From assembly GCF_016127575.1 (NCBI RefSeq), contig NZ_CP066019.1:1080001-1112000 (forward strand): a DNA stretch of 32,000 nucleotides. Direction: 5' to 3'. This DNA is from Cupriavidus necator. GTDB lineage: Bacteria; Pseudomonadota; Gammaproteobacteria; Burkholderiales; Burkholderiaceae. The first letter of the stretch is position 1; every line of letters starts with the position of its first letter. Under the pieces are notes generated by a model that was not told the origin of the DNA, searched no databases, and was given only the letters and a program-made list of their open reading frames with translations. This document shows, in pieces, positions 16,347 to 32,000 of this stretch. Position numbers and translations under genes: made by a program.

Positions 16347-16679
16347 TCAGGGGACCCGCGCCCGGCTGGCGAATGCATTCCACTCCCGGAAGACCGTGTC
16401 CAGGCACGATGCCGAATCGCAGCGGTCCCGCTTCTTGCGGAATGCTGCAATGTCGGCGTCGGTGATTGCCCGCGCCTTGAGCAGGCGCTGCTGGTCGGCA
16501 TAGATGCGCTGGTAGCCCATGGAAAACAGCGCGGATTCGCAGATCAGGCGCTGCGCCTGCGTAGCGTTGGCGGCGGTGGCGGACGGATCGCAGTCGATGT
16601 CGGTGGCATGCGCGGTGCTCAGGAACATGAGGCTTGCGGATGCCAGGGTGTGGAGGGCGATGCGGACAATGCGGGTCAT
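16347..16679 (-). CDS. Small exported cysteine-containing protein (tentatively LprI/DUF1311-like)
   Basis: 110 aa with a signal peptide ending AHA-TD and four Cys. The pattern C..........Q..IC.S.L......RIY and the C-terminal R..C.S.SCL are reminiscent of LprI/DUF1311-type periplasmic proteins. There is no obvious SD, so the call is weak. Confidence 0.4.
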   Translation of the reverse strand: MTRIVRIALHTLASASLMFLSTAHATDIDCDPSATAANATQAQRLICESALFSMGYQRIYADQQRLLKARAITDADIAAFRKKRDRCDSASCLDTVFREWNAFASRARVP

Positions 16680-16793
16680 GACGGGTTGGGGGCAGGGCTG
16701 ACGCTCGACGCAAAGGCGCCGTGTCAGGCGAATAGTAGCGCGCCCCGATAGCGGGCCGACAGGTTCACTGCATGCCGGCCCGCTTCGCCGCGC

Positions 16794-18353
16794 TTAGCGG
16801 AACACGCTGACCGCCTCCACCAGCCGTGTTGCCTGCTGCTTCAGGCTTTCGGCCGCAGCTGCGCTTTGCTCGACCAGCGCGGCGTTCTGCTGGGTGATGT
16901 TGTCAAGGTCGCTGACCGCGCCCCCTACCTGGGATATTCCGCTGCTTTGCTCGGTGGTGGCGGCGCTGATCTCGGCGATCAGGTCGGATACGCGTTTGAC
17001 CTGCGAGACGATGTCGTCCATGGCCTTGCCGGCTTCGTCGACCAGCTTGGCGCCGGACGCGACGTTGTGGACGCTGACATCGATCAGTCCCTTGATTTCC
17101 TTGGCGGCATTGGCGCTGCGCTGCGCCAGGCTGCGCACCTCGCCGGCCACCACGGCAAAGCCGCGGCCCTGTTCGCCGGCGCGGGCGGCTTCCACCGCCG
17201 CATTGAGCGCCAGGATATTGGTCTGGAAGGCAATGCCATCGATCACGCCGATGATATCGGCGATGCGCCTGGAGCTCTCGGTGATCTCGTTCATGGTGTT
17301 GACGACCTCCGACACCGCCTGCCCGCCGCGCTCCGCGGCGACGCTGGCGGAGCCGGACAGCTTGTTGGCTTGCGCCGCGGTCTCCGCGTTGCTCTGCACC
17401 GTGGAGGTCATCTGCGCCATCGACGCGGAGGTTTCCTGCACGCTGGACGCCGCCTGTTCGGTGCGCGCGCTCAGGTCGATATTGCCGCGCGCGATTTCAT
17501 TGCTGGCGGTCTGGACATTGACGACCTGGCCGCTGACGTCGTCGATCAGCCAGCGGAACATCAGGCCGAGCTGGCTGATCGTGCGCAGCGTCATGCCGAT
17601 CTCGTCGACCCGGTTCATGTGCACGGCCTTCTGGCTTTCGCCGGACGCCACGCGCAGCGCCTGCTGCAGGACCTGTTCCAGCGGGGTGGTGATCTGCCGT
17701 TGCAGCCACCAGGATGCCAGCAACGTGGCAAGCGCCATGACCCCTGCAAAGCCTGGTAGTGCCATGCCGGAAAGGCCCATGCCCCAGGCGCCGATGATAC
17801 TGACGGGGAGCAGGGCGGCCAGCGCCAGCCGCACGCGCCAGCGTACCGGCATGGTCTGGAACAGCGAGGTAAAGGCCATCAGGCCCGTGCGCACGATCAG
17901 TCCCTTGTGGAATTTCCGGCTGCCGGCCTGGCCCTCGCGGAAATCGCGATACAGCTTTTCCGCTGCCGCTATCTCCTCGCGTGTTGCCTTGGTGCGCACC
18001 GACATGTAGCCGGCGGGCCGGCCGTTGCGCACCACGGGCGTGGCATTGGCGCGGACCCAGTAATGGTCGCCGTTCTTGCGGCGGTTCTTGACCAGCGCGG
18101 TCCATGGCTCTCCGCCCTTGAGGGTGGCCCACATGTCGGCAAAGGCTTCGGCGGGCATGTCGGGATGGCGCACCAGGTTGTGCGGCTGCCCCTGGATTTC
18201 TTCCCGCGTGAATCCGCTGACCTCGACAAACGCGGCGTTGGCGTAGGTGATGTAGCTCTGCGTGTCGGTGGTCGACATCAGCGTGGCGTTGTCCGGGAAA
18301 TCAAACTCGCGCTGGGTGACGGGCTGGTTGTCGCGCACGGCATTCCTCCTCAT
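16794..18353 (-). CDS. aer: Aer-like aerotaxis/energy-taxis receptor (PAS domain + HAMP + methyl-accepting signalling domain)
   Basis: The N-terminus [56 protein letters not shown]...[16 protein letters not shown] is nearly colinear with E. coli Aer. This is followed by a membrane hairpin, HAMP and the conserved MCP hairpin ([37 protein letters not shown]). The upstream 134 codons in the track are rejected. The true start may be the GTG at 18338, because ATGAGGAGGAAT would then serve as its SD. Confidence 0.9.
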
Positions 18354-18564
18354 TCTCGATGGGCAGGGGGCGCATGCCTTGTTTGCTTTGCATGGATTCC
18401 GGCGCGCCACGGCTGCCGGACCGCGCCCCCTTCTCCCCGCCATGTCGGCCGCAGTTCCCTGGCGCTGATCCCCTCTTCCGTAGGGGAGGGGTTGAATACA
18501 CTCAAACGAGTGAGGGCGACACCGTGGCGCAGGGCGTGGGTGTGGATCTGGCGTGCCTGGCTTG

Positions 18565-21006
18565 CTACATCCGGAACACCGCCCCCAGCCAGAAGCTGCG
18601 CGGCGCGCCCGGTGCCACGAACAGCGCGCTGGCGGCATCCCCCGGTGCCACGTGCGGGCGCACCAGGCTACCGCCGGGGAACACATCGTTCGCGATCTGT
18701 CCGTAGGTCTCGTAGCGCCGGTCAAAGACATTGGCCAAGCGTGCATAGATCTCAAACCGCTTGTTCACCTTGTACGCCGCGCGCAGGTTCAGGGTGGCGT
18801 AGCCGGGCACATGCCAGTCGGCGGTCTTCGGCGGCGCGCCCGGCTGCGGGTCGCTGCGCAGGCCGTCTTCGTTGCCGCTGGAGACGGTGCCTGACACCGC
18901 CACCAGGTCGGCGCCAAGCGTCAGGCCGGCCAGTGCCTGCCAGTCGAGGCCCAGCTTGAGCGTATGGCGGGGCAGGCCCGCCATGCGCATGCCGGGCCGG
19001 ATGTCGATGGTGCGTTCGCCGGCGGCAAGCTGGCCGGCGGCCTGGTAGGTGGCCTGCAGATAGCTGTACGCAAGCCGCAGCGTGACATCGCCCACGCGCT
19101 GGCGGGCGGTGAGGTCCAGACCCTGGTTGCGGGTGCGGTCGAAGTTGGCGAAGTAGCCGAGCTGGGTGTTCGGCGCGCGCAGGAAGAGGATGTCGTCGTG
19201 ATTGTCGACGCGGTAGAGCGACGCGGTGACTTCGGTGTCCTTGCCGCGGTGCCAGCGCACGCCTGCTTCATAGGAGTGTGAGACCACCTGCTTCAGGTAG
19301 GGATCGGCCTGCAGGCCGGCCGGCAGGCGGCAGGGCCGCGTCGGGTCGGCGCAGCCGAGTTCGAGCACGGTCGGTACGCGGTTGTTCTGCGCGTAGCCCC
19401 CGAACACGGTGACGCCGCCGCCCAGCTTCTGCGAGAGTCCCAGCGCGGGGTTGAGGCGGCGGTAGGTAAAGCTTTCGCGCGGCTGTCCGCTGCCGTCGCT
19501 GTTGCGCAGGGTATTGCTTACCTCGACGTGGTTCCACCTGGCCGAGGCGGTCAGGAAGGTGCTGGGGGTCAGCGACCAGGTGTCGGACAGGTACAGGCCG
19601 AGCATGCGCGAGCTGCCGCCGACGCCGGAGAACAGGGCATTGGGGGCGTCCGGGTCGGCCACGGCGCCGCGGTCGTCGGTGAAGGTGCCAGGCTGCGCGT
19701 ACTGCGAATAGGTCAGGCGGCTGCGGTCCAGGGTCAGGCCGGCGTTGAGCAGGTGGCGGTCGGTCTCCCTGGCCATGCTCAGCGCCATGCCGACGGTCTG
19801 CTGCCACATATGGGTGGTGTTGATCACGGCGGGATGCAGCGCGGCGCCTTCGGCCCGGGTCATGCCGCAGTCGGCGCCGAGCGGGCTGCCGTCGGGCGCA
19901 AAGCCGTCCTCGCAGTCTTCGGCATAGGCCTCGTAGGCGGGGTTGACATCGCCGTTGGTGGTGTCGCGGCGGCTGGTGCGCACGTAGGCCAGCGCGGCGG
20001 CGCTGGTCTTGTCGTCGAACCAGTGGCGGCCGTTGACGACGACCTGGGTCACCTGGTTGCGGGTCTGGTCGGGGTAGGTGTACACGGCGTGGCGGTTGGC
20101 CTGGTAGAGGTCTGGCAGCGTGCCATTGGCGCTGGCGTGGAAGCTGGGCACCAGCCCGTTGCCGGTCAGCGTGCTGCGGCCGTGCAGCACGGAGACGTCC
20201 AAGCTGTCAGTGTCGCCCGCATAGCCAGCCTTGGCGAAGACGTTGCCAAGCCGGCCGCCCGACTGGTCACGCCAGCCATGCTCCTGAAACAGGGTGCCGG
20301 CCGCGAATGCGTGCCAGCCGCTGTCGCTGCGCACGCCGCCGGACAGGTCGGCGCGCTTGCGGGCGCCGCTGCCGTAGGACAGGTCGGCCTCGAAGCCGGG
20401 CGAGTCCAGCCCGGAACGAGTGGTCATGGCCAGCGCCCCGCCCAGGGTATTGAGGCCGTAGGCCGGGTTGGCGCTGGACACCAGCGACACGCTCGCCAGC
20501 GCGGCTTCCGGGATCATGTCCCAGCTGACCACGTCGCCGAAGGGCTCGTTGACGCGGATGCCGTCCAGGTAGACCGACAGTCCCTGCGGCACGCCCGGAA
20601 TGGATGAGGCACGGAAGCCGCGGTAGGTGATGTCGGTCTGGAACGGGCTGCCCTGGATGTCGTTGACGTTGACGCCGGCCAGGTTGCGGGACAGGTACTC
20701 GGCCAGGTTGCCGGCGCGCGACCGATCCAGGTCGTCGCCGCGCACGGTCTGCACGGTGTAGGGCACCAGGTCGCTGTCGACGCCGATGCCTGGCAGCGGC
20801 GCGGCGGCCACCACCAGGACTTCCGGCAGCATGGCGCTGTCCTGGTTTGGGACAGCGGTGTCGTGCTGCGCAACAGCGGGCCGCTGGGTCATCAGGGCGA
20901 CCGCCATGGCAATCGCGGTGGCGGCGCCGCGGCTGGTCCTGCGGCGGCAAGCCACGGTGTCGCGCGGCGCCTGCCCTGGCGGTGCGGGGCGCGGGTTGGC
21001 TGGCAT
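18565..21006 (-). CDS. TonB-dependent outer-membrane receptor
   Basis: It has a signal peptide and a TonB-box-like [11 protein letters not shown]. The plug motifs are present: [16 protein letters not shown]...QTDITYRGF...[17 protein letters not shown] long beta-barrel region follows. GGAGGAG lies about 8 nt upstream of the ATG at 21006, and the 107-aa extension in the track is rejected. The protein ends ...VFRM, whereas most TBDRs end with an aromatic residue. Confidence 0.9.
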
Positions 21007-21328
21007 GGTTCCGTCTCCTCCGGATAAGCGGCGCGATACCTGCATTGGGTAGCGCCTGCCCGGAGCTGAGCAGGTTTCGTACCGTGCATCGGGAGTCCGG
21101 CACTTGCGCGGTGAGCGGCCCGGGAACGCGCTGGCCGAACCCGCCTTGCGCCGATGCCTGTCACAAAACAGGACAGCTGCGGACACAAGCAGCGGGCCGG
21201 TGCTCAACCATGGGACAGTCGTTCGCAGCGCACCGCACAAGGCACGGCCTGGCTGCAGCGTCCGGCAGTGCGTCCGGCGCGGCCAGGCAACGGCTGGCAT
21301 GGAGCGCGGCCTGATGCTGCGCTGCACA

Positions 21329-21343
21329 TGGTATCGGCCTTGC
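21329..21343 (+). promoter_or_regulatory. Possible sigma54 (-24/-12) promoter upstream of the Bug/ABC operon
   Basis: TGGTAT-cggcc-TTGCT has the correct GG-to-GC spacing of 12 nt and lies about 40 nt upstream of the ATG at 21383. The -24 half is only a partial match to TGGCAC. Confidence 0.3.
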
Positions 21344-21382
21344 TCTGTTCACCTGCATCAACACTCTGCCTGGTGCTTAGCC

Positions 21383-22378
21383 ATGTTCCGCCGCCTTGGT
21401 CGCTGCCTTGCCTGCCTGCTGTTGCCGTGCCTCGGCCTGGTCCATGCGGGCGCAGCGCTGGCCGAGGGCGCGCACGGGTATCCGTCGCGGCCGATCACGC
21501 TGGTGGTGCCATGGCCAGCGGGCGGCGCCACCGATATCTCCATGCGCATCCTGGCGGAGCTGGCCGGGCGCGAGCTGGGGCAGCCGGTCGTGGTGGAGAA
21601 CCGGCCGGGCGCCGGCGGCACGCTGGTGGGAGGCTTGCTTGCCGCGGCGCGGCCGGACGGCTACACCATCGGCCAGCTGCCGCTGACGGTATATCGCTTC
21701 CCGCATCAGCAGAAGACCGCCTGGCAGCCGCTGCGCGACATCCAGCCGGTGCTGATGATCTCGGGCTATACCTTCGGCATCGTGGTGCCCGCAGACAGCC
21801 CGTTACGCTCGCTGCGCGACCTGGTCGCCTGGGGCCGCGCGCATCCGGGCGAGCTGACCGTGGGCTCCACCGGCATCGGCACCACCGCCCATCTGGCGAT
21901 GGAGGACGTGCTCGGGCGCAGCGGCGTGCGCTATATCCACGTGCCGTATCACGGCACCGCTGACCAGATGCTGGCGGTGGCCAACGGTTCGCTGATGGCG
22001 GGGGTCAATTCCACCGGCTTCGCGCCTTTCGTCGAGACCGGCAAGCTGCGCTTGCTGGCCGTGTTCAGCGCGCAGCGCTCACCGCGCTGGCCCGAGGTGC
22101 CGACGGTAAGCGAGCTGGGCTTTGCCGATGCGGTTCATAACTCGCCCTACGGCATCGGCGTGCCGCGCGGCACCGATCCGGCAATCGTCCGCCGCCTGCA
22201 TGACGCATTCCGTGCCGCGATGCAGCAGCCGCGCCACCTTGCGGAACTGGCCAGGTACGACCAGGAGCTGACCTACCTGAATACCGCGCAATACGATGAC
22301 TTCCTGCGCCATGCGTGGGAGACCGAGCGGAGCTTTGCCGAGCGCGTGGGCACCGCGCGGCCCAGGGGGCAGCTGTGA
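21383..22378 (+). CDS. Bug-family (TctC-like) substrate-binding protein, first gene of the quinoprotein-associated operon
   Basis: A signal peptide (MFRRLGRCLACLLLPCLGLVHAGAALA) is followed by the Bug hallmark YPSRPITLVVPWPAGGATD...VVVENRPGAGGTL...RPDGYTIG. The stop TGA at 22376-22378 overlaps the next ATG (TGATG). The 93-aa extension in the track is rejected. Confidence 0.9.
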   Translation: MFRRLGRCLACLLLPCLGLVHAGAALAEGAHGYPSRPITLVVPWPAGGATDISMRILAELAGRELGQPVVVENRPGAGGTLVGGLLAAARPDGYTIGQLPLTVYRFPHQQKTAWQPLRDIQPVLMISGYTFGIVVPADSPLRSLRDLVAWGRAHPGELTVGSTGIGTTAHLAMEDVLGRSGVRYIHVPYHGTADQMLAVANGSLMAGVNSTGFAPFVETGKLRLLAVFSAQRSPRWPEVPTVSELGFADAVHNSPYGIGVPRGTDPAIVRRLHDAFRAAMQQPRHLAELARYDQELTYLNTAQYDDFLRHAWETERSFAERVGTARPRGQL

Positions 22379-23154
22379 TGGCCATGCAAGCGCCGCCGGC
22401 GCTGTGCTGCGATGCCGTGCGCAAGGCCTTTGGCAGCCGCGTGGCCCTGGATGGGGTCTCGCTCAGCGTGCGGCGCGGCGAGTTCGTGGCACTGCTCGGC
22501 CCCAACGGGGCGGGCAAGACGACGCTGTTCCAGATCCTCAGCGGCCTGTTCGTGGCCGATACCGGGCAGGTCACGGTCATGGGCAGCGACATGCGGCGCG
22601 ATCCGGTGCGCGCGCTGGCGCGGCTGGGCATCGTGTTCCAGCAGCCGGCCATCGACCTGGACCTGCCGGTGCTGGCCAACCTGCGCTTTCACGCGGACCT
22701 GCACGGGCTGCCGCGCGGCGTGGCGGCGCTGCGCATCGCCCGGCTGCTCGATGACTTCGGGCTGGCGGCGCGTGCGCGCGCACCGGTGCGCGAGCTTTCG
22801 GGCGGCAACCGGCGCAAGGTGGAACTGGCGCGCGCGCTGCTGCATGAACCGGCCATGCTGCTGCTGGACGAGCCGACGGTGGGGCTGGACCCGGCCTCGC
22901 GCGCGCAACTGGTGGCCGATGCGCGGCGCCTGACGGCGCGGGCGCAGGCCGGCGTGCTGTGGGCCACCCACCTGGTGCAGGAGGTGGAGCACGCCGACCG
23001 CGTGATCGTGCTGGACCGCGGCATGGTGCGTTTCGACGGCACCCCGGCCGCACTGCGCGGCGCCGCTGCGTGCGACACCCTGGAGGGCGCTTTCCTGGCC
23101 ATGACGCCGCGGGCCCCTGTCACTGACCCGGCCGCGAGGCGCGTACCCGCATGA
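22378..23154 (+). CDS. ABC transporter ATP-binding protein (PQQ-dependent alcohol dehydrogenase system type; PedB/LutE-like)
   Basis: Walker A GPNGAGKTT, signature LSGGNRRKVELARAL, Walker B LLLDEPTVGLD and H-loop WATHLV are present. It is a single-NBD ABC-2/DrrA-like ATPase. The start is coupled to the upstream stop. Confidence 0.9.
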   Translation: MAMQAPPALCCDAVRKAFGSRVALDGVSLSVRRGEFVALLGPNGAGKTTLFQILSGLFVADTGQVTVMGSDMRRDPVRALARLGIVFQQPAIDLDLPVLANLRFHADLHGLPRGVAALRIARLLDDFGLAARARAPVRELSGGNRRKVELARALLHEPAMLLLDEPTVGLDPASRAQLVADARRLTARAQAGVLWATHLVQEVEHADRVIVLDRGMVRFDGTPAALRGAAACDTLEGAFLAMTPRAPVTDPAARRVPA

Positions 23155-24179
23155 ACAAGATGCCATCTCCCCGCTGGTTTGCCGGCGCCTTGCTGCTGGT
23201 CACGACGCTGCTGGTTGCCGCCGGCCTGGCCGAAGGCGCGCAGGGCGGGGCCGCGCGACCCGCCGGCCAGGCTGGCAACCAGGTCTTTGTCTCGAGCGAG
23301 AAGGACGATGCCCTCGCCGTCTTCGATGCCCGCAGCCGGCAGCTGGTCGCGGTATGGCGGCAGTGCAAGCGCCCGCGCCACCTGCAACTGTCGCCCGACC
23401 GGACGCGCCTGTACGTGGCCTGCAGCGACGACAACCGGGTGGATGTGGTCGACGTGGCCAGCCGCAAGACCGTGGCATCGCTGCCGGTGGGGGATGATCC
23501 GGAGTTGTTCGATCTCAGCCAGGACGGCCGCACGCTCTATGTCTCGAATGAAGAGGACGGGCTGCTGTCGGCCTACGACACGGCGTCGGGCAAGCGCGTG
23601 TTCGCGGTCAGGGTGGGCGAGGAGCCGGAGGGCGTCAAGGTCAGCGCCGACGGCAGGCATGTGTACGTGACCTCGGAGGTGGCCAACCTGGTCCATGTCA
23701 TCGACGTGGCCTCGCGCAAGGTGATCCGCAATATCCAGGTCGGCAACCGGCCGCGGCGGCTGCTGCTGGTGCGCGACGGCAAGGAGCTGTGGGTATCCAA
23801 CGAGCTCTCGGCCAGCGTCAGCGTGATCCGTACCGATACCTTCGAGGTGGCCCAGACCATCGCCTTCGCGCCGCGGGGCTTTCGCGCCGAGGACGTGACC
23901 CCGGTGGGCATGGCGGCCAGCGGCGACGGCACGCGCGCCTATATCGGGCTCGGCCGCGCCAACCATGTCGCGGTGGTCGAGGTGGCGTCGCGCCGGGTGC
24001 AGGACTATGTGCTGGTCGGCCGCCGCGCATGGGGGCTGGCGCTGAGCCGCGACAACGCGCGGCTGTATGTCGCCAACGGCCTGTCCGACGATGTCAGCGT
24101 GGTGGCCACCGCCAGCCGCAAGGCGGTGGCCACGCTCAAGGCGGGCCGGGTGCCGCATTCGGTGGCGATCGATGACTGA
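23151..24179 (+). CDS. Periplasmic YVTN-repeat beta-propeller protein (PQQ-dependent catabolism-associated beta-propeller; PedA2/LutB-like)
   Basis: After a signal peptide, repeated units follow the pattern P..L..S.DG..LYV.N...D.VSV.D (for example LSPDRTRLYVACSDDNRVDVVD, LSQDGRTLYVSNEEDGLLSAYD, VSADGRHVYVTSEVANLVHVID, LSRDNARLYVANGLSDDVSVV). It overlaps the ATPase stop with ATGA. Confidence 0.85.
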   Translation: MNKMPSPRWFAGALLLVTTLLVAAGLAEGAQGGAARPAGQAGNQVFVSSEKDDALAVFDARSRQLVAVWRQCKRPRHLQLSPDRTRLYVACSDDNRVDVVDVASRKTVASLPVGDDPELFDLSQDGRTLYVSNEEDGLLSAYDTASGKRVFAVRVGEEPEGVKVSADGRHVYVTSEVANLVHVIDVASRKVIRNIQVGNRPRRLLLVRDGKELWVSNELSASVSVIRTDTFEVAQTIAFAPRGFRAEDVTPVGMAASGDGTRAYIGLGRANHVAVVEVASRRVQDYVLVGRRAWGLALSRDNARLYVANGLSDDVSVVATASRKAVATLKAGRVPHSVAIDD

Positions 24180-25377
24180 GCGCTCGCGTGCGTGGTGGCA
24201 GTGGTGGCGTGCCGGGCTGGGCGCCGTGGCGCTGGGGTGGCTGCCTGCCGCGGTGCACGCTGCCGAGGTGCGCGTGGCGGTCGTGTCGCAGGCCGACGAC
24301 GCGCGCTATGCGCCCCGGCGCCTGGCGCAGCGCTATCCCGGCCAGCCGCAGGGCCGTGCGCTCGACGGCGCCCAGGTGGCGGCCGCCGAAGCGCGCGTGG
24401 CGCTCGGGGCCGCGGGCCAGTCGCTCAGGCTGGAAGCACAGGAAGCCCGCACTGAAGCCGAGGTGGCCCCGCTGGTCGCGGCGCTGGCGCGGCAGGGCAC
24501 GCGCTATATCCTGCTGGACCTGCCGCCGGCATCGGTCAGGGCGGCCACGGGCGCGGTCAAGCCGGGCGAGGCCTTGTTGTTCAACGTGTCGGCCGACGAC
24601 GACGCGTTGCGCGGCGCCGGCTGCGCGCCGGTGCTGCTGCACACGCTGCCCAGCCTGCGCATGCGCGCGGATGCGCTGATGCAGTACCTGGCACTGCGCA
24701 AATGGCGCCGCGCCCTGCTGCTGAGCGGCCCGTCCGCGGCCGATGCGGCGCAGCGCGACGCGCTGGTGGCGTCGGCGCGGCGCTTTGGCATTGCCTGGTC
24801 GGCGCAGCGCGCCTTCCGGCTGTCCAACGACCCGCGTGAGCGCGACCAGGCCAACCTCGGCCTGCTGACCGGCGGCGTGGACTATGACGTGGTGGTGGTG
24901 GCCGATGCCGACGGCGAGTTCGCCCGCGGCGTGCCCTACGCCACGCTGCTGCCGCGCCCGGTGGTGGGCGCCGGCGGGCTGGGCGCGCAGGCGTGGCACT
25001 GGGCCTGGGAGCGCAATGGCGGGCCGCAGCTCAACCGGCGCTTCATGCGCGCGGCGGGCCGTCCGATGACCGGCTACGACTGGGCTGCCTGGGTGGCGGT
25101 CAAGGCCATTGCCGAGAGCGTGGCGCGCCTGCCCGGGGCCGGGTTTGCCGGACAGGCGCAGGCGCTTGCCGCCGGGCAGGTGGTGGTGGACGGCTTCAAG
25201 GGGCCGCCGCTGTCGTTCCGCCGCTGGGACCGCCAGCTGCGCCAGCCGGTGTTGCTGGCCCACCCCGACGGCGTGGCCGGCATGGCCCCGGTGGAAGGCG
25301 TGTTGCATCCGAAGAACAACCTCGACACCCTGGGCGCCGATGAAGCCGACACGGCGTGCCGGGCCCCATCCGCGTAG
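24172..25377 (+). CDS. Type-1 (LivK-like) periplasmic substrate-binding protein of the PQQ-ADH-associated ABC system (PedA1/LutA-like)
   Basis: The start at MTERSRAWWQWW gives a signal/anchor segment ending AVHA-AEVRVAVV. The fold-level pattern of branched-chain-type binding proteins is present (RYILLDLP..., ...LQYLALRKWRRALLLSGP...). It overlaps the previous gene by 8 nt. The 35-aa extension in the track is rejected. Confidence 0.75.
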   Translation: MTERSRAWWQWWRAGLGAVALGWLPAAVHAAEVRVAVVSQADDARYAPRRLAQRYPGQPQGRALDGAQVAAAEARVALGAAGQSLRLEAQEARTEAEVAPLVAALARQGTRYILLDLPPASVRAATGAVKPGEALLFNVSADDDALRGAGCAPVLLHTLPSLRMRADALMQYLALRKWRRALLLSGPSAADAAQRDALVASARRFGIAWSAQRAFRLSNDPRERDQANLGLLTGGVDYDVVVVADADGEFARGVPYATLLPRPVVGAGGLGAQAWHWAWERNGGPQLNRRFMRAAGRPMTGYDWAAWVAVKAIAESVARLPGAGFAGQAQALAAGQVVVDGFKGPPLSFRRWDRQLRQPVLLAHPDGVAGMAPVEGVLHPKNNLDTLGADEADTACRAPSA

Positions 25378-25384
25378 CGCACCC

Positions 25385-26197
25385 ATGGCCTCCATCCTGA
25401 TCCATCGCTGGCGCGCGCTGCGCGCGGTTTGCGGGCGCGAGCTGCGCAAGTACCTGCGCCAGCCCGGGCGCCTGCTGTCGTCGCTGGTGCGCCCGCTGCT
25501 GTGGCTGCTGGTGTTTGCCGCGGGCTTCCAGAACGCGCTGGGCGTCGCCATTGCGCCGCCCTACGACACCTACATCGAATACAAGGTCTACGTGGCGCCC
25601 GGACTGCTGGGCATGATCGCGCTGTTCAACGGCATGCAGTCGTCGCTGGCCATGGTGTACGACCGCGAGATGGGCGTGATGCGGCTGCTGCTGACCGCGC
25701 CGCTGCCGCGGGGCTGGCTGCTGGCTTGCAAGCTGGCGGCGGGTACGGTGCTGTCGCTGCTGCAGATGGCCGCGTTCCTGCTGGTGGCGATGGCCTTCGG
25801 CATCCGCTTCGAGTCCCTGCACCTGCTGGCGGCGACGGGCGCCATGGCGCTGGCCGCGCTGATGCTGGGTGCGCTGGGCCTGCTGCTGTCGGTTCATGTG
25901 CGCCAGCTCGAGAACTTTGCCGGCACCATGAACTTCGTGATCTTCCCGATGTTCTTCATCAGCTCGGCGCTGTATCCACTGTGGAAGCTGCAGGAGTCGG
26001 GCGCGGAGCTGGTGTACCAGCTGGCCCGCTTCAATCCGTTCACCCACGCGGTCGAGGCGATCCGCTTTGCGCTGTACGGGCAGGTGGCGCCGCTGAGCCT
26101 GGCGGTGGTGGCGGGCAGCGCGGTGGTGTTCTTCGCGCTGGCGCTGCAGGGCTACGACCCGCAGCGCGGCATGGCGCGCCGGGGGCAGCAGGCATGA
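25385..26197 (+). CDS. ABC-2 type transporter permease (PedC/LutF-like)
   Basis: 270 aa with about 6 TM segments. The ABC-2 N-terminus is typical: RELRKYLRQPGRLLSSLVRPLLWLLVFAAGF. It starts 7 nt after the SBP stop. The 92-aa extension in the track is rejected. Confidence 0.85.
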   Translation: MASILIHRWRALRAVCGRELRKYLRQPGRLLSSLVRPLLWLLVFAAGFQNALGVAIAPPYDTYIEYKVYVAPGLLGMIALFNGMQSSLAMVYDREMGVMRLLLTAPLPRGWLLACKLAAGTVLSLLQMAAFLLVAMAFGIRFESLHLLAATGAMALAALMLGALGLLLSVHVRQLENFAGTMNFVIFPMFFISSALYPLWKLQESGAELVYQLARFNPFTHAVEAIRFALYGQVAPLSLAVVAGSAVVFFALALQGYDPQRGMARRGQQA

Positions 26198-26994
26198 GGC
26201 GGCGGACGTGGGGCATGCTCCTGCTGATGGCGGCCGCACTGGGCCTGGCCAGTGCGGCGGTAGCGGCTGCCGGGGCAGCGGGCGCCGTCATCGCGCACAG
26301 CGATCCGCTGCAGTCGCCGCAATGGGCCTGGATCCACAAGGAGCTGCTGCAGTCTGGCCCGGTGGTGTTCGACAGCCGCGTCAGGGTGACCGGGCCGGCG
26401 TTTGCGGAAGACCCCATGCGCGTGCCGATCGCCTTCGATGCCTCGGCGCTGGGCGAAGTGGATCGCATCGTGGTGGCGGTCGACCGCAACCCGATCCGCG
26501 AGGTGCTGGCGTTCGAACCGCTGCGGGTGCGCCCGTCGCTGTCGTTCCGCTTCAAGCTGGAACAGGCTTCGCCGGTGCGGGTGGCGGCGCGCACGCGCGA
26601 TGGCACCTGGCATGTCGGCAGCGTGCTGGTCAATGCCGGCGGCGGGGGCTGTACGGTGCCCGGCGCCACCCGCCGCGACGGCAGCTGGAGCCGCACGCTC
26701 AATCGCGTGGACGCGCGCGTGTTCCCGGGCTTCGGCGGGGCCGCGGCACGCGTGCGGCTGCGCGTGATGCATCCGATGGATACCGGACTGGCAGCGGGCA
26801 TCCCGGCGTTCCACATCGAGACCCTGGTTCTTGCCGACGCGGCCCGGCAGCCGCTGCTGCGCCTGACGCTGCATGAGCCGGTTGCCGAGAATCCGATCTT
26901 CTCCTTCGACCTGCGCGATGCCGTGCCGCCGGGCATGACGGTGGCCGGCCACGACAACAACGGCAACCGCATCGCGGCGCGGGTGTCACCATGA
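26194..26994 (+). CDS. SoxY-SoxZ fusion-like periplasmic carrier protein (quinoprotein dehydrogenase-associated SoxYZ-like carrier)
   Basis: An RR-containing signal peptide (MRRRTWGMLLLMAAALGLASA) is present. The N-terminal half fits the SoxY pattern (VTGPAFAEDPMRVPI...VAVDRNP...SFRFKLEQASPVRVAART.DGTWH..SVLVNAGGGGC). The C-terminal half fits SoxZ (RVRLRVMHPMDTG...IPAFHIETLVL...EPVAENPIFSFDL). It overlaps the permease stop with ATGA. The 255-aa extension in the track is rejected. Confidence 0.75.
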   Translation: MRRRTWGMLLLMAAALGLASAAVAAAGAAGAVIAHSDPLQSPQWAWIHKELLQSGPVVFDSRVRVTGPAFAEDPMRVPIAFDASALGEVDRIVVAVDRNPIREVLAFEPLRVRPSLSFRFKLEQASPVRVAARTRDGTWHVGSVLVNAGGGGCTVPGATRRDGSWSRTLNRVDARVFPGFGGAAARVRLRVMHPMDTGLAAGIPAFHIETLVLADAARQPLLRLTLHEPVAENPIFSFDLRDAVPPGMTVAGHDNNGNRIAARVSP

Positions 26995-27962
26995 AGCGGC
27001 GATTGCTACTGTGGTTGCTGCTATGCCTGGCGGGCCAGCCCGTGCCGCCGGCATTCGCCCAGCAGGCTGCGCTGCAGCCTCCTGACTATCGCCTGGCCCC
27101 GCGCGAGATCGCCGCGGGCGTGTGGCTGCTGGAAGGCGCCAATGCCGACTTCGCGCCCGGCAACGGCTGCAACATCATCAATACGGCGTTCATCGACACC
27201 GGCGACGGCATAGTGGTTATCAACACCGGCCCGTCGCGGCTGTATGGCGAGCAGCAGCGCAAGGCGATTGCATCGGTCACGGCCGCCCCGGTGCGGCTGG
27301 TGCTGAACCTGAACCTGCATCCCGACTATTTCTTCGGCAACCAGGCCTATGCCGATGTGGGCGGCAGCGCCCTGGCCGGCACCATCGACGGGGCGCGGCG
27401 CGAGGGCGCCGCTTATGCCGACAACCTCTACCGCCTGTGCGGCGACTGGATGCGCGGCACCGAGCCCGTGCCGGCTGCGCACGCGCTGGCGCCGGGCCGG
27501 CTCACGATCGGGCGCCATACGCTGGAGATGGTGCGCCTGGACGGCCATACCGGCGACGACCTGGTGGTGCTGGACCACAGCGCGGGCGTGGTCTTTGCCG
27601 GCGGGCTGGTGTTCCGGCAACGCATTCCGACCACGCCGCACGCGGATATCGGCCGCTGGCTGGCCAGCCTGGGCCGGCTGCAGGCGCTGCTGGCCGACAG
27701 CGGGGCGCGCGTGCTGGTCCCCAGCCACGGGCCAGTGCCTGCGGCCGGCGGCGGCGCTGAGGCCATCGCGCAGACGCGCGGCTACCTGCAATGGCTGGAC
27801 ACGCGCCTGCGCGAGGCCGCGGCGCAGGGGCGGGACCTGGCCGAGGTCATGGCGATGCCGGTGCCGCAGCCCTACGCGCACTGGGCCGCGATGCCCGCGG
27901 AGTACCTGCGCAACGTCGGCCATCTCTACCCTGCGCGTGAGGAAGCCGCGCTTGGCCACTGA
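26991..27962 (+). CDS. Periplasmic metallo-beta-lactamase-fold protein (quinoprotein relay system metallohydrolase-like)
   Basis: It has a signal peptide ending PAFA-QQ and an MBL-fold layout: GCNIINTAFIDTGDGIVVINTGPS, then LNLNLHPDYFFGN at the HxHxDH position, GHTGDDLVVLD, VFAGGLVF and LVPSHGP. It overlaps the carrier gene stop with ATGA. Confidence 0.8.
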   Translation: MKRRLLLWLLLCLAGQPVPPAFAQQAALQPPDYRLAPREIAAGVWLLEGANADFAPGNGCNIINTAFIDTGDGIVVINTGPSRLYGEQQRKAIASVTAAPVRLVLNLNLHPDYFFGNQAYADVGGSALAGTIDGARREGAAYADNLYRLCGDWMRGTEPVPAAHALAPGRLTIGRHTLEMVRLDGHTGDDLVVLDHSAGVVFAGGLVFRQRIPTTPHADIGRWLASLGRLQALLADSGARVLVPSHGPVPAAGGGAEAIAQTRGYLQWLDTRLREAAAQGRDLAEVMAMPVPQPYAHWAAMPAEYLRNVGHLYPAREEAALGH

Positions 27963-28081
27963 CGCTGGCCAGCCGAGGCGGGCTGTTCAGTTCTGGAGCA
28001 ACTGCAACGCAGTGTTGCGCGCTGGCACGGCCGTCATCACGCAACCGGGCCGCAACCGGCGTGCTGGTGCGGGGATGCGAC

Positions 28082-28096
28082 TGGCATGGGAATTGC
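28082..28096 (+). promoter_or_regulatory. Candidate sigma54 (-24/-12) promoter for the PQQ alcohol dehydrogenase gene
   Basis: TGGCATG-ggaa-TTGCC matches the consensus TGGCACG-N4-TTGCW except at one -24 position, and the GG/GC spacing is exact. It lies about 68 nt upstream of the ATG at 28164. Confidence 0.5.
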
Positions 28097-28163
28097 CAAA
28101 GGCGTGTCTGGTGGGTGGCGCAGTGGCGCACCTGGGAAACCCAAAACAAGAGAGGAGATGGCA

Positions 28164-29906
28164 ATGAGGACGTTACGAGTAGTGATGGCGGTTGCGGCTG
28201 CCGCGGCCAGTCTGGCCGCGCAGGCGGCTGTGACCGATGCCATGATCGAGAACGACGCAAAGAGCCCCGGCGATGTGTTGTCGTGGGGCATGGGCCCGCA
28301 AGGCCAGCGCTATTCCACGCTGTCGCGCATCAATACGAAGAACGTCGGGCAGCTGGTGCCGGCGTGGTCGTTCTCGTTTGGCGGCGAGAAGCAGCGCGGG
28401 CAGGAATCGCAGCCGCTGATCCATGACGGCAAGATGTTCGTGACGGCCTCGTATTCGCGCATCTATGCGCTGGACCTGAAGACCGGGCGCAAGCTCTGGA
28501 AGTATGAGCACCGGCTGCCCGAAGGCATCATGCCGTGCTGCGACGTGGTGAACCGCGGTGCGGCACTCTACGACAACCTGGTGATCTTCGGCACGCTCGA
28601 TGCGCAGCTGGTGGCGCTGGACCAGAAGACCGGCAAGGTGGTGTGGAAGGAGAAGCTGGAGGACTACGCCGCCGGCTATTCGTACACGGCGGCGCCCATG
28701 ATCGTCAAGGGCATGGTGCTGACCGGCATCTCGGGCGGCGAGTTCGGCGTGGTGGGCCGGGTCGACGCACGCGATGCCAAGACCGGGCAGCTGGTGTGGT
28801 CGCGGCCGGTGGTCGAAGGCCATATGGGCTACAAGTACGACAAGGACGGCAACAAGACCGAGAACGGCGTGACCGGCACCGCCAACGCAAGCTGGCCGGG
28901 CGAGACCTGGAAGACCGGCGGCGCCGCCACCTGGCTGGGCGGCACCTACGATCCGGCCACCGGGCTGGTGTACTTCGGCACCGGCAATCCGGGGCCGTGG
29001 AACAGCCATATCCGCAAGGGCGACAACCTCTACTCGGCCTCGACGGTGGCGCTGGATCCCGCCACCGGCAAGATCGCCTGGCACTACCAGAACACCCCGA
29101 ACGACGGCTGGGATTTCGATGGCGTCAATGAGTTCGTGACCTTCGACCTGGACGGCAAGCGCATGGGCGGCAAGGCCGACCGCAATGGCTTCTTCTACGT
29201 CAACGACGCGGCCAGCGGCAAGCTGGTCAACGCCTTCCCCTTCGTCAGGAAGATCACCTGGGCCACCGGCATCGACCTGAAGAGCGGCCGCCCCAACTAC
29301 ATCGCCGAAGGCCGCCCCGGCGACCCCGCCGCCGGCAGCGACGAGAAGAAGGGCAAGTCCGTGTTTGCCGCGCCGGGCTTCCTTGGCGGCAAGAACCAGC
29401 AGCCGATGGCCTACAGCCCGCAGACCGGCCTGTTCTACGTGCCCGCCAACGAGTGGGGCATGGATATCTGGAACGAGCCCATCAGCTACAAGAAGGGCGC
29501 TGCCTTCCTGGGCGCGGGTTTCACCATCCGTCCGCTGAACGAGGACTATATCGGCACGCTGCGGGCCATCAACCCCAAGAGCGGCAAGATCATGTGGGAG
29601 GTCAAGAACAGCGCGCCGCTGTGGGGCGGGGTGATGACCACCGCCGGCGGGCTGGTGTTCTGGGGCACGCCGGAAGGCTACCTGAAGGCGGCCGACGCCA
29701 GGACCGGCAAGGAGCTGTGGCAGTTCCAGACCGGCAGCGGCGTGGTGGCGCCCCCGGTCACCTGGGAAGAGAACGGCGAGCAGTACGTGGCGGTGGTGTC
29801 CGGCTGGGGCGGCGCGGTGCCGCTGTGGGGCGGCGAGGTGGCCAAGCGCGTGAACTTCCTGGAGCAGGGCGGCTCGGTGTGGGTGTTCAAGCTGCACAAG
29901 AGCTGA
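28164..29906 (+). CDS. PQQ-dependent (type I quinoprotein) alcohol dehydrogenase, ExaA/PedE/PedH family
   Basis: It is nearly colinear with Pseudomonas quinoprotein ethanol dehydrogenase. Shared elements are [43 protein letters not shown], the vicinal disulfide [58 protein letters not shown] and GGSVWVFKL. Signal peptide: [28 protein letters not shown] ends 6 nt before the ATG at 28164, so the ATG at 28158 and the track start at 28086 are less likely. Confidence 0.95.
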
Positions 29907-29929
29907 GCTGGCGGGAGATGACACTGCCA

Positions 29930-29966
29930 GGCGCCCGCATCGCATCATGGGTGCGATGCGGGCGCC
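29930..29966 (+). other. Perfect 15-bp GC-rich hairpin between the dehydrogenase and cytochrome c genes
   Basis: GGCGCCCGCATCGCA (29930-29944) pairs perfectly with TGCGATGCGGGCGCC (29952-29966) across a 7-nt loop (TCATGGG). No U-tract follows. Confidence 0.6.
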
Positions 29967-29984
29967 GGGCGCGGGTGCAACAGG

Positions 29985-30326
29985 ATGAAACGGGACTCAG
30001 GTATGAAGAAGGAATGGATGGCGCTGGCGGTGGCTTCGGCGCTGCTGCCGGGCGCGGCGCTGGCCGGCACGGCCGCCGACATGCAGGCCCTGGCCGACAA
30101 GAGCGGCTGCTTTTCCTGCCATGGCATGCAGTCAAAGCTGGTGGGCCCGGGGTTTGCCGAGGTGGCTGCCAAGTACAAGGGCGACAGCCAGGCGGCGGAG
30201 CGGCTGGCAAAGAAGATCCGCGAAGGCGGCAAGGGCGCGTGGGGGCGGATTCCGATGCCGCCGCATGGCAGCCTTGCTGAGGACGATGCGAAGAAACTGG
30301 CGGAGTGGGTGTTGAGTGCCAGCTGA
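29985..30326 (+). CDS. Class I c-type cytochrome, c551/c552 (c8) family; likely electron acceptor of the PQQ dehydrogenase
   Basis: The heme motif CFSCH and the distal Met context GAWGRIPMPP are present. The sequence is colinear with Pseudomonas cytochrome c551 (KxGCxxCH....K.VGP.....AAKY.G........LA..I..G..G.WG.IPMPP........A..LA.WVLS). The start may be the ATG at 30003 (MKKEWMAL...) rather than 29985. Confidence 0.85.
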   Translation: MKRDSGMKKEWMALAVASALLPGAALAGTAADMQALADKSGCFSCHGMQSKLVGPGFAEVAAKYKGDSQAAERLAKKIREGGKGAWGRIPMPPHGSLAEDDAKKLAEWVLSAS

Positions 30327-30366
30327 GGCCGGCGACTGTCTTGACGATGCCGGCATGCCGGCAAGG

Positions 30367-30405
30367 AACCCCGGCTGGCGCCTGCCATGCCGGGGTTTTT
30401 CCTTT
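30367..30405 (+). terminator. Rho-independent terminator after the cytochrome c gene, at the convergence point with pqqE
   Basis: AACCCCGGC (30367-30375) pairs with GCCGGGGTT (30389-30397). An inner TGGC/GCCA extension is possible. TTTTTCCTTTCTT follows. The pqqE stop codon (30407-30409, minus strand) directly abuts it. Confidence 0.75.
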
Positions 30406-30406
30406 C

Positions 30407-31558
30407 TTAGCGCTGGCCGCTGCTCAGCCGCAGCGAGTTGCCATCGCTGCGAAATACCATCGCTTGCTCGCGTGCCTGCGCCACGGCCAGCCGGCCCTGC
30501 AGCACGATCTCGCTGACCTTGTCGTGCGCGCCGGAGCGCTCGCACACCGGGTCCGTGGCGGTGGCGTCGCCGGTGACCAGGAACGCCTGGCAGCGGCAGC
30601 CGCCGTAGTCCTGCTCGCGCTGGTCGCAGGAACGGCAGGGTTCCTGCATCCACTGCGTGCCGCGGAAACGGCGGAAGGCATCGCTTTCGGTCCAGATCTC
30701 GCGCAGCCCCTGCGTGGCGACATTGGGCAGCGCCAGGCCCGGCAGCATGCGCGCCGCGTGGCAGGGCAGCGCGGTGCCGTCCGGCGCCACGCCAAGGAAG
30801 GTGGTGCCCCAGCCGTTCATGCACTTCTTGGGCCGCGCCTCGAAGTAATCAGGCACGACGAACAGGATCTGGCATTGCCTGCCGATGCGCGCGCGGTACT
30901 GCCGGACCACGGCCTCGGCCTCGCGCAGCTGCTCATGGGTGGGCAGCAGCGCCAGCCGGTTCTCCCAGGCCCAGCCGTAGTACTGCGTGTTGGCCAGTTC
31001 CAGGTATTCGGCGCCCATCTGCAGGGCCATCTCGATGATGGTGCCGACATGCGGCAGGTTATGCCGGTGCAGCACGCAGTTCATCACCATCGGATAGCCG
31101 TGCGCCTTGATCATGCGCGCCACGCGCTGCTTCAGGTCGAAGGTGCGGGTGCTGGACAGGAAGTCGTTGAGCTCGCGGGTGGAGTCCTGGAACGACAGCT
31201 GGATATGGTCCAGGCCGGCGTCGCGCAGGGCGGCAAGGCGGGCGTCGGTCAGGCCCACGCCCGAGGTGATGAGGTTGGTGTAGAAGCCCAGGCCATGCGC
31301 ATGCCTGACCAGTACTTCAAGGTCCTTGCGCAGCAGTGGTTCGCCGCCGGACAGCCCGAGCTGCACCGCGCCCAGCGCCCGCGCCTGGCTGAACACGTCG
31401 CACCATTGCACGGTGCTCAGCTCGGCCGTATGCCGGGCATAGTCCACCGGGTTGGAGCAGAAGGCGCAATGCAGCGGGCAGCGGTAGGTCAGCTCGGCCA
31501 GCAGCCACAGCGGCGGGCCGGGCGCGGCCTCAGACCAGCCAGCCGCGTTCGATCGCAT
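30407..31558 (-). CDS. pqqE: PQQ biosynthesis radical SAM/SPASM protein PqqE
   Basis: PPLWLLAELTYRCPLHCAFCSNP contains the CxxxCxxC radical SAM motif. GGEPLLRKDL and a Cys-rich SPASM C-terminus (CRSCDQREQDYGGCRCQAF) are present. It is colinear with Klebsiella PqqE. The start was chosen at MRSNAAGW (31558), which overlaps the pqqD 3' end by 29 nt. The ATG at 31573 is also possible. Confidence 0.93.
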   Translation of the reverse strand: MRSNAAGWSEAAPGPPLWLLAELTYRCPLHCAFCSNPVDYARHTAELSTVQWCDVFSQARALGAVQLGLSGGEPLLRKDLEVLVRHAHGLGFYTNLITSGVGLTDARLAALRDAGLDHIQLSFQDSTRELNDFLSSTRTFDLKQRVARMIKAHGYPMVMNCVLHRHNLPHVGTIIEMALQMGAEYLELANTQYYGWAWENRLALLPTHEQLREAEAVVRQYRARIGRQCQILFVVPDYFEARPKKCMNGWGTTFLGVAPDGTALPCHAARMLPGLALPNVATQGLREIWTESDAFRRFRGTQWMQEPCRSCDQREQDYGGCRCQAFLVTGDATATDPVCERSGAHDKVSEIVLQGRLAVAQAREQAMVFRSDGNSLRLSSGQR

Positions 31559-31802
31559 GTTTGACAAAGGCATGTACCTCCGGGGCGATTCCCTGCACGC
31601 CAAACGCGGCCTGCAGGTCGTCGATCAGCATGTCCAGCGTGTGGCTGCCGTCGCAGCGCTGCAGGATCGCGGCGGCGCTGTCGTTGAGGGTGACCATGCC
31701 TTCCGGGTACAGCAGCACCCAGCTTTGCTGGGAGGCTTCCCATTGCAGGCGAAAGGTCCGGTGCAGGGTCGGTCTGGCGAGGTCTTGCGTGCTGGCTGTC
31801 AT
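31530..31802 (-). CDS. pqqD: PQQ biosynthesis peptide chaperone PqqD
   Basis: The 90-aa product [52 protein letters not shown]... matches the PqqD core (FRLQWE....H.LLYPEGM..LN..A..IL). The 64-aa extension in the track is rejected because it would overlap pqqC. Confidence 0.9.
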
Positions 31803-32000
31803 GGGTTGGCTTGCTGGATGGCGTCGAGCATCGACCAGAGCACGTCGAGCTTGAACTGCAGGATGTCGAGGGCGCGCTGCTGTTGCGCCGCGCTGCGGAA
31901 ATGGCCCAGCGTCACGCGCAGGCCATGGTCCACGTCGCGCTGCGCGAGCGGAATGCGAGAGCGGAAGTAGTCCAGCCCGGCGGCCTCGATCCACGGGTAA
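31799..32000 (-). CDS. pqqC: Pyrroloquinoline-quinone synthase PqqC, C-terminal 66 codons (gene continues beyond the window end)
   Basis: This ORF is not in the track because it is open at the edge. My minus-strand translation from 31999 gives [66 protein letters not shown]. This is the conserved PqqC C-terminus (YPWI...LDYFR.R.....RDV.HGL......ALD.L.FK.D.LW.MLDA). The stop overlaps the pqqD ATG (ATGA). Confidence 0.9.

Follow-up and report, generated by a model that had tools for sequence, protein, structure and literature searches.

The window analysed in this study is a 32,000-nucleotide stretch of Cupriavidus necator (contig NZ_CP066019.1, positions 1,080,001 to 1,112,000 of the forward strand). 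Between positions 21383 and 27962 it holds seven open reading frames (ORFs) on the plus strand, all in frame and packed almost without spacing, just upstream of a gene for a pyrroloquinoline quinone (PQQ)-dependent alcohol dehydrogenase. The gene identities proposed in an initial annotation were borne out by profile searches, in which six of the seven products score above curated NCBIfam cut-offs and the first, a Bug protein, is recognised by PF03401. The seven genes are as follows.

21383..22378, plus strand: gene 1, Bug/TctC-family periplasmic binding protein with a signal peptide (PF03401, 245.6 bits)
22378..23154, plus strand: gene 2, ATP-binding cassette (ABC) ATPase of the PedB/LutE type (TIGR03864, 337.7 bits; cut-off 302.25)
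23151..24179, plus strand: gene 3, exported YVTN seven-bladed beta-propeller of the PedA2 type (TIGR03866, 321.6 bits; cut-off 287.3; TIGR02276 repeats)
24172..25377, plus strand: gene 4, periplasmic substrate-binding protein of the PedA1/LutA type (TIGR03863, 465.1 bits; cut-off 413.6)
25385..26197, plus strand: gene 5, ABC-2 type permease of the PedC/LutF type (TIGR03861, 359.7 bits; cut-off 241.35; PF01061)
26194..26994, plus strand: gene 6, exported SoxY-SoxZ fusion carrier (TIGR04557, 214.4 bits; cut-off 140; PF13501 and PF08770)
26991..27962, plus strand: gene 7, exported metallo-beta-lactamase (MBL)-fold protein, 'quinoprotein relay system hydrolase 1' (TIGR04558, 403.8 bits; cut-off 300)

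All six junctions read in the sequence exactly as first described. Gene 1 runs into gene 2 through TGATG (22376-22380), where the stop codon TGA and the ATG share one nucleotide; an alternative gene 2 start, GTG at 22375, would give a 4-nt overlap with gene 1. The tetranucleotide ATGA joins gene 2 to gene 3 (23151-23154), gene 5 to gene 6 (26194-26197) and gene 6 to gene 7 (26991-26994), while genes 3 and 4 overlap by 8 nt (24172-24179) and a 7-nt gap (25378-25384) separates genes 4 and 5. Tight gene packing is usual in bacterial operons and is no statistical anomaly by itself; the packing of these junctions rises above chance only through its conservation across relatives. Besides the ATGA between carrier and hydrolase, most of the other junctions are also kept in syntenic Cupriavidus loci. 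The closest carrier homologues are from this genus: that of Cupriavidus sp. UYPR2.512 has 95% identity, and the contig on which it lies (L001) is syntenic throughout. N-terminal hydrophobic export segments were found in the products of genes 1, 3, 6 and 7, in the dehydrogenase and in the cytochrome that follows it, and gene 5 encodes multiple hydrophobic (membrane) segments.

The PQQ dehydrogenase, the c-type cytochrome and the convergent pqqCDE genes that had been placed downstream were all recovered, pqqC as its 3' end only. Together with two promoter-like elements, they lie at the following positions.

21329..21344, plus strand: sigma-54 type -24/-12 element TGGTATCGGCCTTGCT, 39 nt before the gene 1 ATG
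28082..28097, plus strand: sigma-54 type -24/-12 element TGGCATGGGAATTGCC, before the dehydrogenase gene
28158..29906, plus strand: PedH-type PQQ alcohol dehydrogenase, predicted to be lanthanide-type (TIGR03075, 777.3 bits; cut-off 480.05), with WDFDG at 29109-29123
29985..30326, plus strand: small exported class I c-type cytochrome with CFSCH (PF00034, E 7e-10)
30375..30393, plus strand: terminator-like hairpin and T-run 3' of the cytochrome gene (consensus scan only)
30407-31603, minus strand: pqqE (TIGR02109, 531.8 bits)
31533-31802, minus strand: pqqD (TIGR03859, 98.1 bits; also tblastn with syntenic PqqD)
31802-31999, minus strand: 3' end of pqqC (tblastn with syntenic PqqC)

Lanthanide PQQ enzymes are marked by an extra aspartate two residues past the catalytic one (WDxDG). 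The active-site stretch of the window enzyme, DGWDFDG, is that of PedH, whereas the Ca-dependent ExaA has DAWDFSG. PedH (6ZCV/6ZCW) is also the best-scoring solved relative (832.7 bits for 6ZCV against 676.2 bits for ExaA, 1FLG) and has a vicinal Cys-Cys pair in common with the window enzyme. Judged by this active-site residue, the dehydrogenase is lanthanide-type, and its activity would depend on a lanthanide ion. Its start was set at ATG 28158, which has GAGAGGAG as a Shine-Dalgarno sequence before it and a signal peptide after it, 195 nt downstream of the operon, because the first ATG of the longest ORF, at 28086, falls inside the sigma-54 element and was rejected on that ground. The adjacent cytochrome, presumed to be the electron acceptor of the dehydrogenase, differs from the partner of PedH in that it is not of the PedF family; its sole NCBIfam match is a weak one to c551.

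Sigma-54 elements were sought as GG-N10-GC with TGGCAC-N5-TTGCW-like flanks, and were assessed by a suitable upstream distance and a conserved orthologous position. Of 26 betaproteobacterial loci, 13 keep the gene 1 element ahead of their Bug gene, and all 13 are of the Cupriavidus necator/basilensis type. The element before the dehydrogenase is kept in 66 of 71 betaproteobacterial loci, with GG and GC fixed and the spacer sequence varying. The background expectation is about 0.04 matches per 390-nt segment. The raw count of four sites in the window is not above chance; both elements are credited because they are conserved across loci, and not because of that count. Inside the seven genes there is no good sigma-54 site and no terminator-like site on the plus strand; matches with two mismatches being at chance level, no internal promoter can be claimed there. 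A sigma-70 scan was uninformative in this GC-rich DNA. Because a single conserved element stands before gene 1 and neither a terminator nor a good sigma-54 site interrupts the genes, a single sigma-54-driven transcript of genes 1-7 is plausible and most likely. The simplest reading of the region is two transcription units, genes 1-7 and the dehydrogenase with its cytochrome. Neither shared upstream activator sites nor inverted repeats of a convincing kind were seen around the two promoters. Syntenic loci carry a gene for a sigma-54 activator on the far side of the pqq genes, past the limits of the window.

Module structure across related loci

The locus was compared with 80 genome loci found through the carrier alignment (the best 80 of at least 592 matches, all Betaproteobacteria), to which six annotated plasmid loci (Alpha- and Betaproteobacteria) and 80 metagenome loci found through the hydrolase alignment were added, making 166 in total. 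Genes were called with a positional-GC log-odds caller and clustered, with a cross-check by tblastn. In nearly all of the 166 loci the carrier gene has the hydrolase gene as its neighbour; among the Betaproteobacteria the hydrolase gene follows the carrier gene directly in 74 of 77 loci, with the 4-nt ATGA overlap in 52 of these 74. A PQQ dehydrogenase lies inside the retrieved flank in 117 of the 166 loci, many of the remaining contigs ending early, and the nearest dehydrogenase carries WD[FY]DG in about 110 loci and WDFSG in eight. ABC genes within 10 kb were found in about 25-27 of the 80 betaproteobacterial loci, against 1-3 of the 80 from metagenomes.

The arrangements themselves differ between genera. 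In Ralstonia the dehydrogenase, receptor and ExaC genes are divergent from a carrier-hydrolase-hydrolase paralogue block that has no ABC genes nearby, while Polynucleobacter and several others have the order receptor-carrier-hydrolase-dehydrogenase. Hydrogenophaga carries an inverted Bug-ATPase pair beside (propeller-)binding protein-permease-carrier-hydrolase-dehydrogenase, and in other genera a sigma-54 element precedes whichever gene heads the unit, be it carrier, propeller or binding protein. Because the ABC genes often lie apart while carrier and hydrolase are near-invariant, we read the seven-gene operon, by comparison of gene order, as a Cupriavidus-specific joining of separable modules. 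The carrier-hydrolase pair appears as a conserved, translationally coupled core, separable from the transporter.

The initial annotation had drawn another conclusion from the tight coupling, namely that the seven proteins are made in fixed stoichiometry and form one functional machine. On this view, the machine would be periplasmic and membrane-bound, with the carrier and hydrolase as obligate parts of the ABC transporter. The overlapping or near-abutting junctions throughout the block, kept in syntenic Cupriavidus genomes, and the single promoter-like element upstream would fit such a machine. The modules separate across the 166 loci, however: in Ralstonia, Polynucleobacter, Limnobacter, Methylibium and most metagenome loci the pair has no ABC genes in its vicinity, the low ABC counts given above point the same way, and the Bug-ATPase pair of Hydrogenophaga runs opposite to the other genes. 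In other genera every module has a sigma-54 element of its own, and the ped cluster of Pseudomonas putida has the two sets in separate operons (PMC12997753 Table 1). A single obligate machine is therefore very unlikely, and this part of the earlier interpretation is not supported.

A strict tie of the pair to lanthanide-type enzymes was also considered and rejected on account of the eight loci in which a WDFSG enzyme is nearest, among them a Paracoccus seriniphilus plasmid (L086) and loci L087-L089. In these four the pair lies directly upstream of the Ca-type dehydrogenase gene, and L086 also has rhodanese-like and pentapeptide-repeat genes. In one further locus, from Cupriavidus gilardii CCUG 38401 (L025), the carrier gene is followed by genes for a PedF-type cytochrome and a binding protein, not by those for the hydrolase and dehydrogenase.

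Receptor and putative importer genes

Divergent from the operon lies a receptor gene.

18565..21006, minus strand: TonB-dependent outer-membrane receptor (Pfam TonB_dep_Rec_b-barrel 139.8 bits, Plug 52.5 bits)

Its start is probably ATG 21006 (MPANP...), alternatively 21045, the longest ORF (920 aa) being over-extended. Orthologues with 80-95% identity are found in syntenic Cupriavidus, and the receptors whose genes adjoin that of the carrier in Ralstonia, Polynucleobacter and others have 30-37% full-length identity to it and form one subfamily. It has one weak match among PDB sequences and no close relative there, and it scores far short of the PqqU cut-off (102.8 bits against 1200). The tie of this receptor to a lanthanide system comes from gene context, from which we infer its substrate. 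Two observations concern its neighbourhood. A gene for a PAS-domain methyl-accepting chemotaxis protein (16794-18755, minus strand) adjoins the receptor gene, a position not kept in the syntenic Cupriavidus loci examined. A histidine kinase and LuxR-type response regulator pair, absent from the window, lies between receptor and operon in five other Cupriavidus loci (L002, L008-L011).

Genes 2-5 had been recognised as counterparts of PedA1A2BC of P. putida and of the Lut genes of Methylorubrum, and their family scores, all above cut-off, support this (PMC6839425; PMC7391723). The description of the whole module as largely uncharacterised does not hold for these four of the seven genes, which belong to genetically characterised lanthanide importer families. 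PedA1A2BC of P. putida KT2440 (PP_5538, PP_2669, PP_2668, PP_2667) is made up of the same four families, TIGR03863, TIGR03866, TIGR03864 and TIGR03861, and likewise forms one operon adjoining a PedH-type lanthanide dehydrogenase. The gene order in the window is different, a Bug/TctC protein heads the operon, which runs on into the carrier and hydrolase, and the window adds an adjacent TonB-dependent receptor, of which P. putida has none nearby, and the sigma-54 elements. The Lut cluster of Methylorubrum extorquens AM1 (lutA, lutB, lutE, lutF, lutH and others) has the same logic of a TonB-dependent receptor, a binding protein, an ABC importer and a lanthanide quinoprotein, but no homologue of lanmodulin or LanD/LutD was seen in the window, and the partner enzyme there is ethanol-type (PedH-like) and not XoxF.

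In P. putida, PedA1A2BC is required for La-dependent growth at low La, the mutant needing at least 10 uM La (PMC6839425), and in M. extorquens La is deposited in the periplasm of LutA/E/F mutants, LutH being the outer-membrane receptor (PMC7391723). By analogy with these homologues, genes 2-5 would import lanthanide. An ABC-2 system that exports, for instance, PQQ, a chelator or a toxic product is an alternative, since the best matches of ATPase and permease outside their own families are the daunorubicin exporters DrrA (204.5 bits, next-best for gene 2) and DrrB (121.3 bits), and the genes lie near pqq genes. Dedicated periplasmic binding proteins are present, however, and both the La build-up in the periplasm of the lutA/E/F mutants, with cytoplasmic La uptake dependent on the system, and the raised La requirement of the P. 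putida mutant speak against export, which we regard as distinctly unlikely.

Gene 1 has no NCBIfam match. Its PDB relatives are Bug27, BugD and BugE (1e-36 to 1e-40), with Bug27 and a terephthalate-binding protein as the best (about 1e-40). It has 29-31% identity to the two Bug paralogues elsewhere in the window, against 56-62% to the copies embedded in related clusters of Hydrogenophaga, Rhizobacter and others. In other genera the orthologue again lies directly upstream of the ATPase gene, in two gene arrangements, and no TctA or TctB membrane component was found among the annotated ORFs of the window. Gene 1 thus appears to encode a specific Bug orthologue, which in Burkholderiales is a candidate for an additional part of the importer. 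Staphyloferrin B-type hydroxycarboxylate siderophores, a Ralstonia product, solubilise lanthanide oxide, and Methylobacterium aquaticum needs them for growth on methanol (PMC9301485); because of this, it is reasonable that the Bug fold, which binds carboxylates, might handle a lanthanide-carboxylate complex. PQQ, itself a tricarboxylate, is an alternative ligand.

For gene 4 there is no Pfam family and no PDB sequence relative, and the label 'LivK-like' given to it earlier could not be verified. The propeller encoded by gene 3 has a weak local match, far under the cut-off, to the zinc metallochaperone AztD (E 9e-5). AztD passes metal to an ABC binding protein, and it is a possible functional analogy for PedA2-type propellers, as a lead only.

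The carrier-hydrolase pair

The two remaining genes had been said to have only comparative-genomics names, and indeed the literature on the pair amounts to about one review section (PMC12997753 section 15). There the pair is proposed to serve disulfide or cofactor maturation, or the protection of PQQ. The literature already flags both proteins as lacking characterised biochemistry. A Hyphomicrobium copy of the pair sits in an alcohol-oxidation cluster (PMC11582611). The homologues named 'quinoprotein relay system' in P. putida (PP_2677/PP_2678) and M. extorquens (META1p1703-1705) have in common with the window pair the families TIGR04557 and TIGR04558 and a position immediately upstream of a lanthanide-type dehydrogenase. 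They differ from it in that the window has no nearby gene for a PedG/XoxJ-type binding protein, a rhodanese/CXXCW protein or a thioredoxin-like protein, and in the metal site of the hydrolase, which has NLHPDY/Gly205/His217 instead of HxHxDH...D.

The carrier family is small, with 508 clusters (50% identity, E <= 1e-3) among 1.84 billion representatives. Its cysteine, Cys153 in GGGGC (codon 26650-26652), aligns with the SoxY carrier cysteine of 4UWQ_B, and the GGGC motif with C153 is invariant in 18 relatives. In an AlphaFold model (predicted local distance difference test, pLDDT, 83.8) the best folds are SoxY chains of SoxYZ (template modelling score 0.72-0.85 on the target). The model confidence falls to pLDDT 55 exactly at the cysteine loop, which is consistent with a mobile arm. 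Twin-arginine-like motifs at the carrier N-termini, MRRRTW in the window (26194-26230) and SRRDWL and GRRTFL in relatives, suggest export by the twin-arginine translocation (Tat) pathway, as for SoxY.

SoxYZ with SoxB and SoxH of Paracoccus pantotrophus offers a parallel: the SoxY and SoxZ folds, the homologous cysteine on a flexible segment, export, and a periplasmic metallohydrolase partner are common to both. In the window, however, SoxY and SoxZ are fused, the cysteine is internal (GGGC-T) and not C-terminal (GGCGG), and the genomic partner is a PQQ dehydrogenase. Could genes 6 and 7 then be a remnant or variant of thiosulfate (Sox) oxidation, unrelated to the dehydrogenase? The Pfam SoxY and SoxZ domains, and the name 'sulfur-oxidizing protein SoxY' that some sources give to relatives, would suggest it. 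The carrier was rejected as a true SoxY or SoxZ, falling under both cut-offs (TIGR04488, 51.4 against 125 bits; TIGR04490, 26.7 against 76 bits), no soxAX, soxB or soxCD gene was found among the window ORFs, and the company kept with PQQ dehydrogenases in 117 of the 166 loci, where many other contigs end early, makes the idea scarcely credible. By analogy, the carrier would work like SoxYZ, yet the locus is no Sox system.

The hydrolase departs from the canonical MBL pattern. Its metal motif is NLHPDY (27312-27329) instead of HxHxDH, the motif-4 aspartate is replaced by Gly205, and an extra invariant histidine, His217, is present; the canonical binuclear site implied by the name 'zinc metallohydrolase' is thus not found in it. 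This remodelled site (N108/Y113/G205/H217) occurs in the hydrolases of Burkholderiales and Azospirillum, while the alphaproteobacterial and most metagenome hydrolases keep the canonical THHHPDH...GD. That the remodelling follows lanthanide-type dehydrogenases, a pattern that would have pointed to a hydrolase that binds lanthanide, was rejected, for canonical HxHxDH...D hydrolases stand beside WD[FY]DG enzymes in 41 metagenome loci; from the alignments, the change is clade-specific, being confined to Burkholderiales and Azospirillum. The nearest folds to the hydrolase model (pLDDT 91) are 8D2Z, an uncharacterised Burkholderia MBL protein, the chlorothalonil dehalogenase 6UXU, and B1/B2 lactamases. 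The fold is not close to glyoxalase II or persulfide dioxygenase, and a thioesterase reading is therefore weakened.

The second relay hydrolase (TIGR04559) was not found in the window. A SoxH-related MBL paralogue (L004:19178-20149, plus strand; L012:11729-12604, plus strand) is found on the far side of the pqq genes in Cupriavidus, whereas in Ralstonia it comes straight after hydrolase 1. Its scores are under both relay-hydrolase cut-offs (150-159 against 280 bits and 141-152 against 300 bits; 150.3 and 141.4 bits for the syntenic Cupriavidus copy) and it therefore belongs to a third subfamily and is not 'hydrolase 2'.

The hypothesis of a 2026 review of the ped cluster (PMC12997753), in which carrier, hydrolase and related proteins are maturation or redox-repair factors of the dehydrogenase, acting on its vicinal Cys-Cys disulfide or shielding PQQ from sulfur nucleophiles, and are not carriers of intermediates, deserves separate attention. 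The window dehydrogenase has the vicinal cysteines, the carrier has rhodanese-like or CXXCW proteins in its company on alphaproteobacterial plasmids and in P. putida (PMC12997753 section 15), and the weak knock-out phenotypes are those that repair factors should give. Against this, neither the window nor the 10-kb surroundings of the carrier in the 80 betaproteobacterial loci hold a rhodanese or CXXCW gene, Ca-type enzymes that share this disulfide are usually without the pair, and the metallohydrolase is no obvious disulfide catalyst. We hold this proposal to be possible, though rather unlikely.

Proposed mechanism and genomic surroundings

Taking these results together, we consider it probable that a single transcript joins a lanthanide-import module to a carrier-hydrolase module that services the PedH-type enzyme. 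The import module would comprise genes 1-5, that is, the Bug protein with the PedB, PedA2, PedA1 and PedC homologues, working like PedA1A2BC/LutAEF. The TonB-dependent receptor would bring lanthanide, free or chelated, through the outer membrane; one or more periplasmic binding proteins, with the propeller, would pass it on to the ABC transporter, and this would move it to the cytoplasm, where it would be needed for the lanthanide switch and for PedH-dependent growth. The second module would be genes 6-7, a Tat- or Sec-exported carrier whose cysteine loop is mobile and, in translational coupling with it, a SoxH-like metallohydrolase. In analogy to SoxYZ/SoxB, the carrier cysteine would take up a covalent adduct and the hydrolase would free it. 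The module would service the adjoining PedH-type dehydrogenase, whose gene would be transcribed along with that of a c-type cytochrome from a separate sigma-54 promoter, next to the PQQ biosynthesis genes. As for the adduct, our leading guess, drawn from the same analogy, is the aldehyde product held as a thiohemiacetal, or else a sulfur or redox adduct at the dehydrogenase; a thiohemiacetal or thioester derived from the aldehyde is the form we find most attractive.

Several points weigh against this explanation. The eight loci that pair the carrier with a Ca-type dehydrogenase make a strictly lanthanide-specific role unlikely. The window hydrolase lacks three canonical metal ligands, and hydrolysis is therefore not assured. 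The receptor matched generic TonB-dependent receptor families only, its LutH/LanA/TonB_Ln type being a matter of gene context, and the DrrA/DrrB-like ATPase and permease are ABC-2 proteins of a type that usually exports. Finally, the carrier and hydrolase homologues of P. putida gave minimal phenotypes in RB-TnSeq, the sequencing of randomly barcoded transposon insertions, in an assay without lanthanides (PMC12997753 section 15), and those of M. extorquens were not among the hits of a transposon selection (PMC7391723 Table 1); the role of the pair is therefore accessory at most.

A bolder version would make the pair a periplasmic protein-thiol relay for the dehydrogenase product, in which the newly formed aldehyde would be caught by the mobile Cys153 as a thiohemiacetal, oxidised by the quinoprotein to a thioester, and set free by the hydrolase as the acid. 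A second, separate possibility is that the Bug protein binds lanthanide-hydroxycarboxylate (lanthanophore) complexes and feeds the ABC-2 importer. We think these readings unlikely. If true, the relay would be a glutathione-free periplasmic counterpart of thiol-dependent formaldehyde and glyoxal detoxification.

The system as such is not new: all of its families are curated, and close RefSeq homologues already bear these names. What is new here is the assignment of the dehydrogenase as lanthanide-type with its corrected start, the two conserved sigma-54 elements, the modular analysis, the Bug orthologue found with the ATPase in different genera, and the clade-specific change of the hydrolase metal site. 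The study of lanthanide-dependent alcohol oxidation is still young, and the periplasmic steps between outer-membrane uptake, enzyme metallation and product handling are its obscure part. The locus brings together receptor, importer, carrier, hydrolase, enzyme, cytochrome and cofactor genes in 13 kb under two predicted sigma-54 promoters, in a genetically tractable genus. The comparisons narrow the experiments worth doing, in that they point to the pair as a core apart from the transporter and not strictly bound to lanthanide-type enzymes, and to the Bug protein as a candidate component.

Outside the window, a conserved set of four genes stands beside a lanthanide-type dehydrogenase gene or pqqE (L061:16352-18988, minus strand; L055:14678-17246, minus strand; about 14 other loci). 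Of its products, one is lipoprotein-like (about 230 aa), one is a membrane protein (about 170 aa), one has about 203 aa, and the last, of about 240 aa, has only a weak match to MotA/ExbB (E 0.0026); none of the four reaches a Pfam or NCBIfam threshold.

The right half of the window is most likely, from its gene content, a lanthanide-dependent alcohol-oxidation island on a Cupriavidus replicon. No Rfam match was obtained between 16 and 32 kb. The G+C content steps up near 16 kb, from about 62-64% in positions 1-16000 to about 70% in positions 16000-32000. The left 16 kb carries unrelated functions: EamA and major facilitator superfamily (MFS) transporters, a cyoABCD-like quinol oxidase (3086-7342), BKACE and TauD proteins, the two other Bug proteins, and AraC and GntR regulators.

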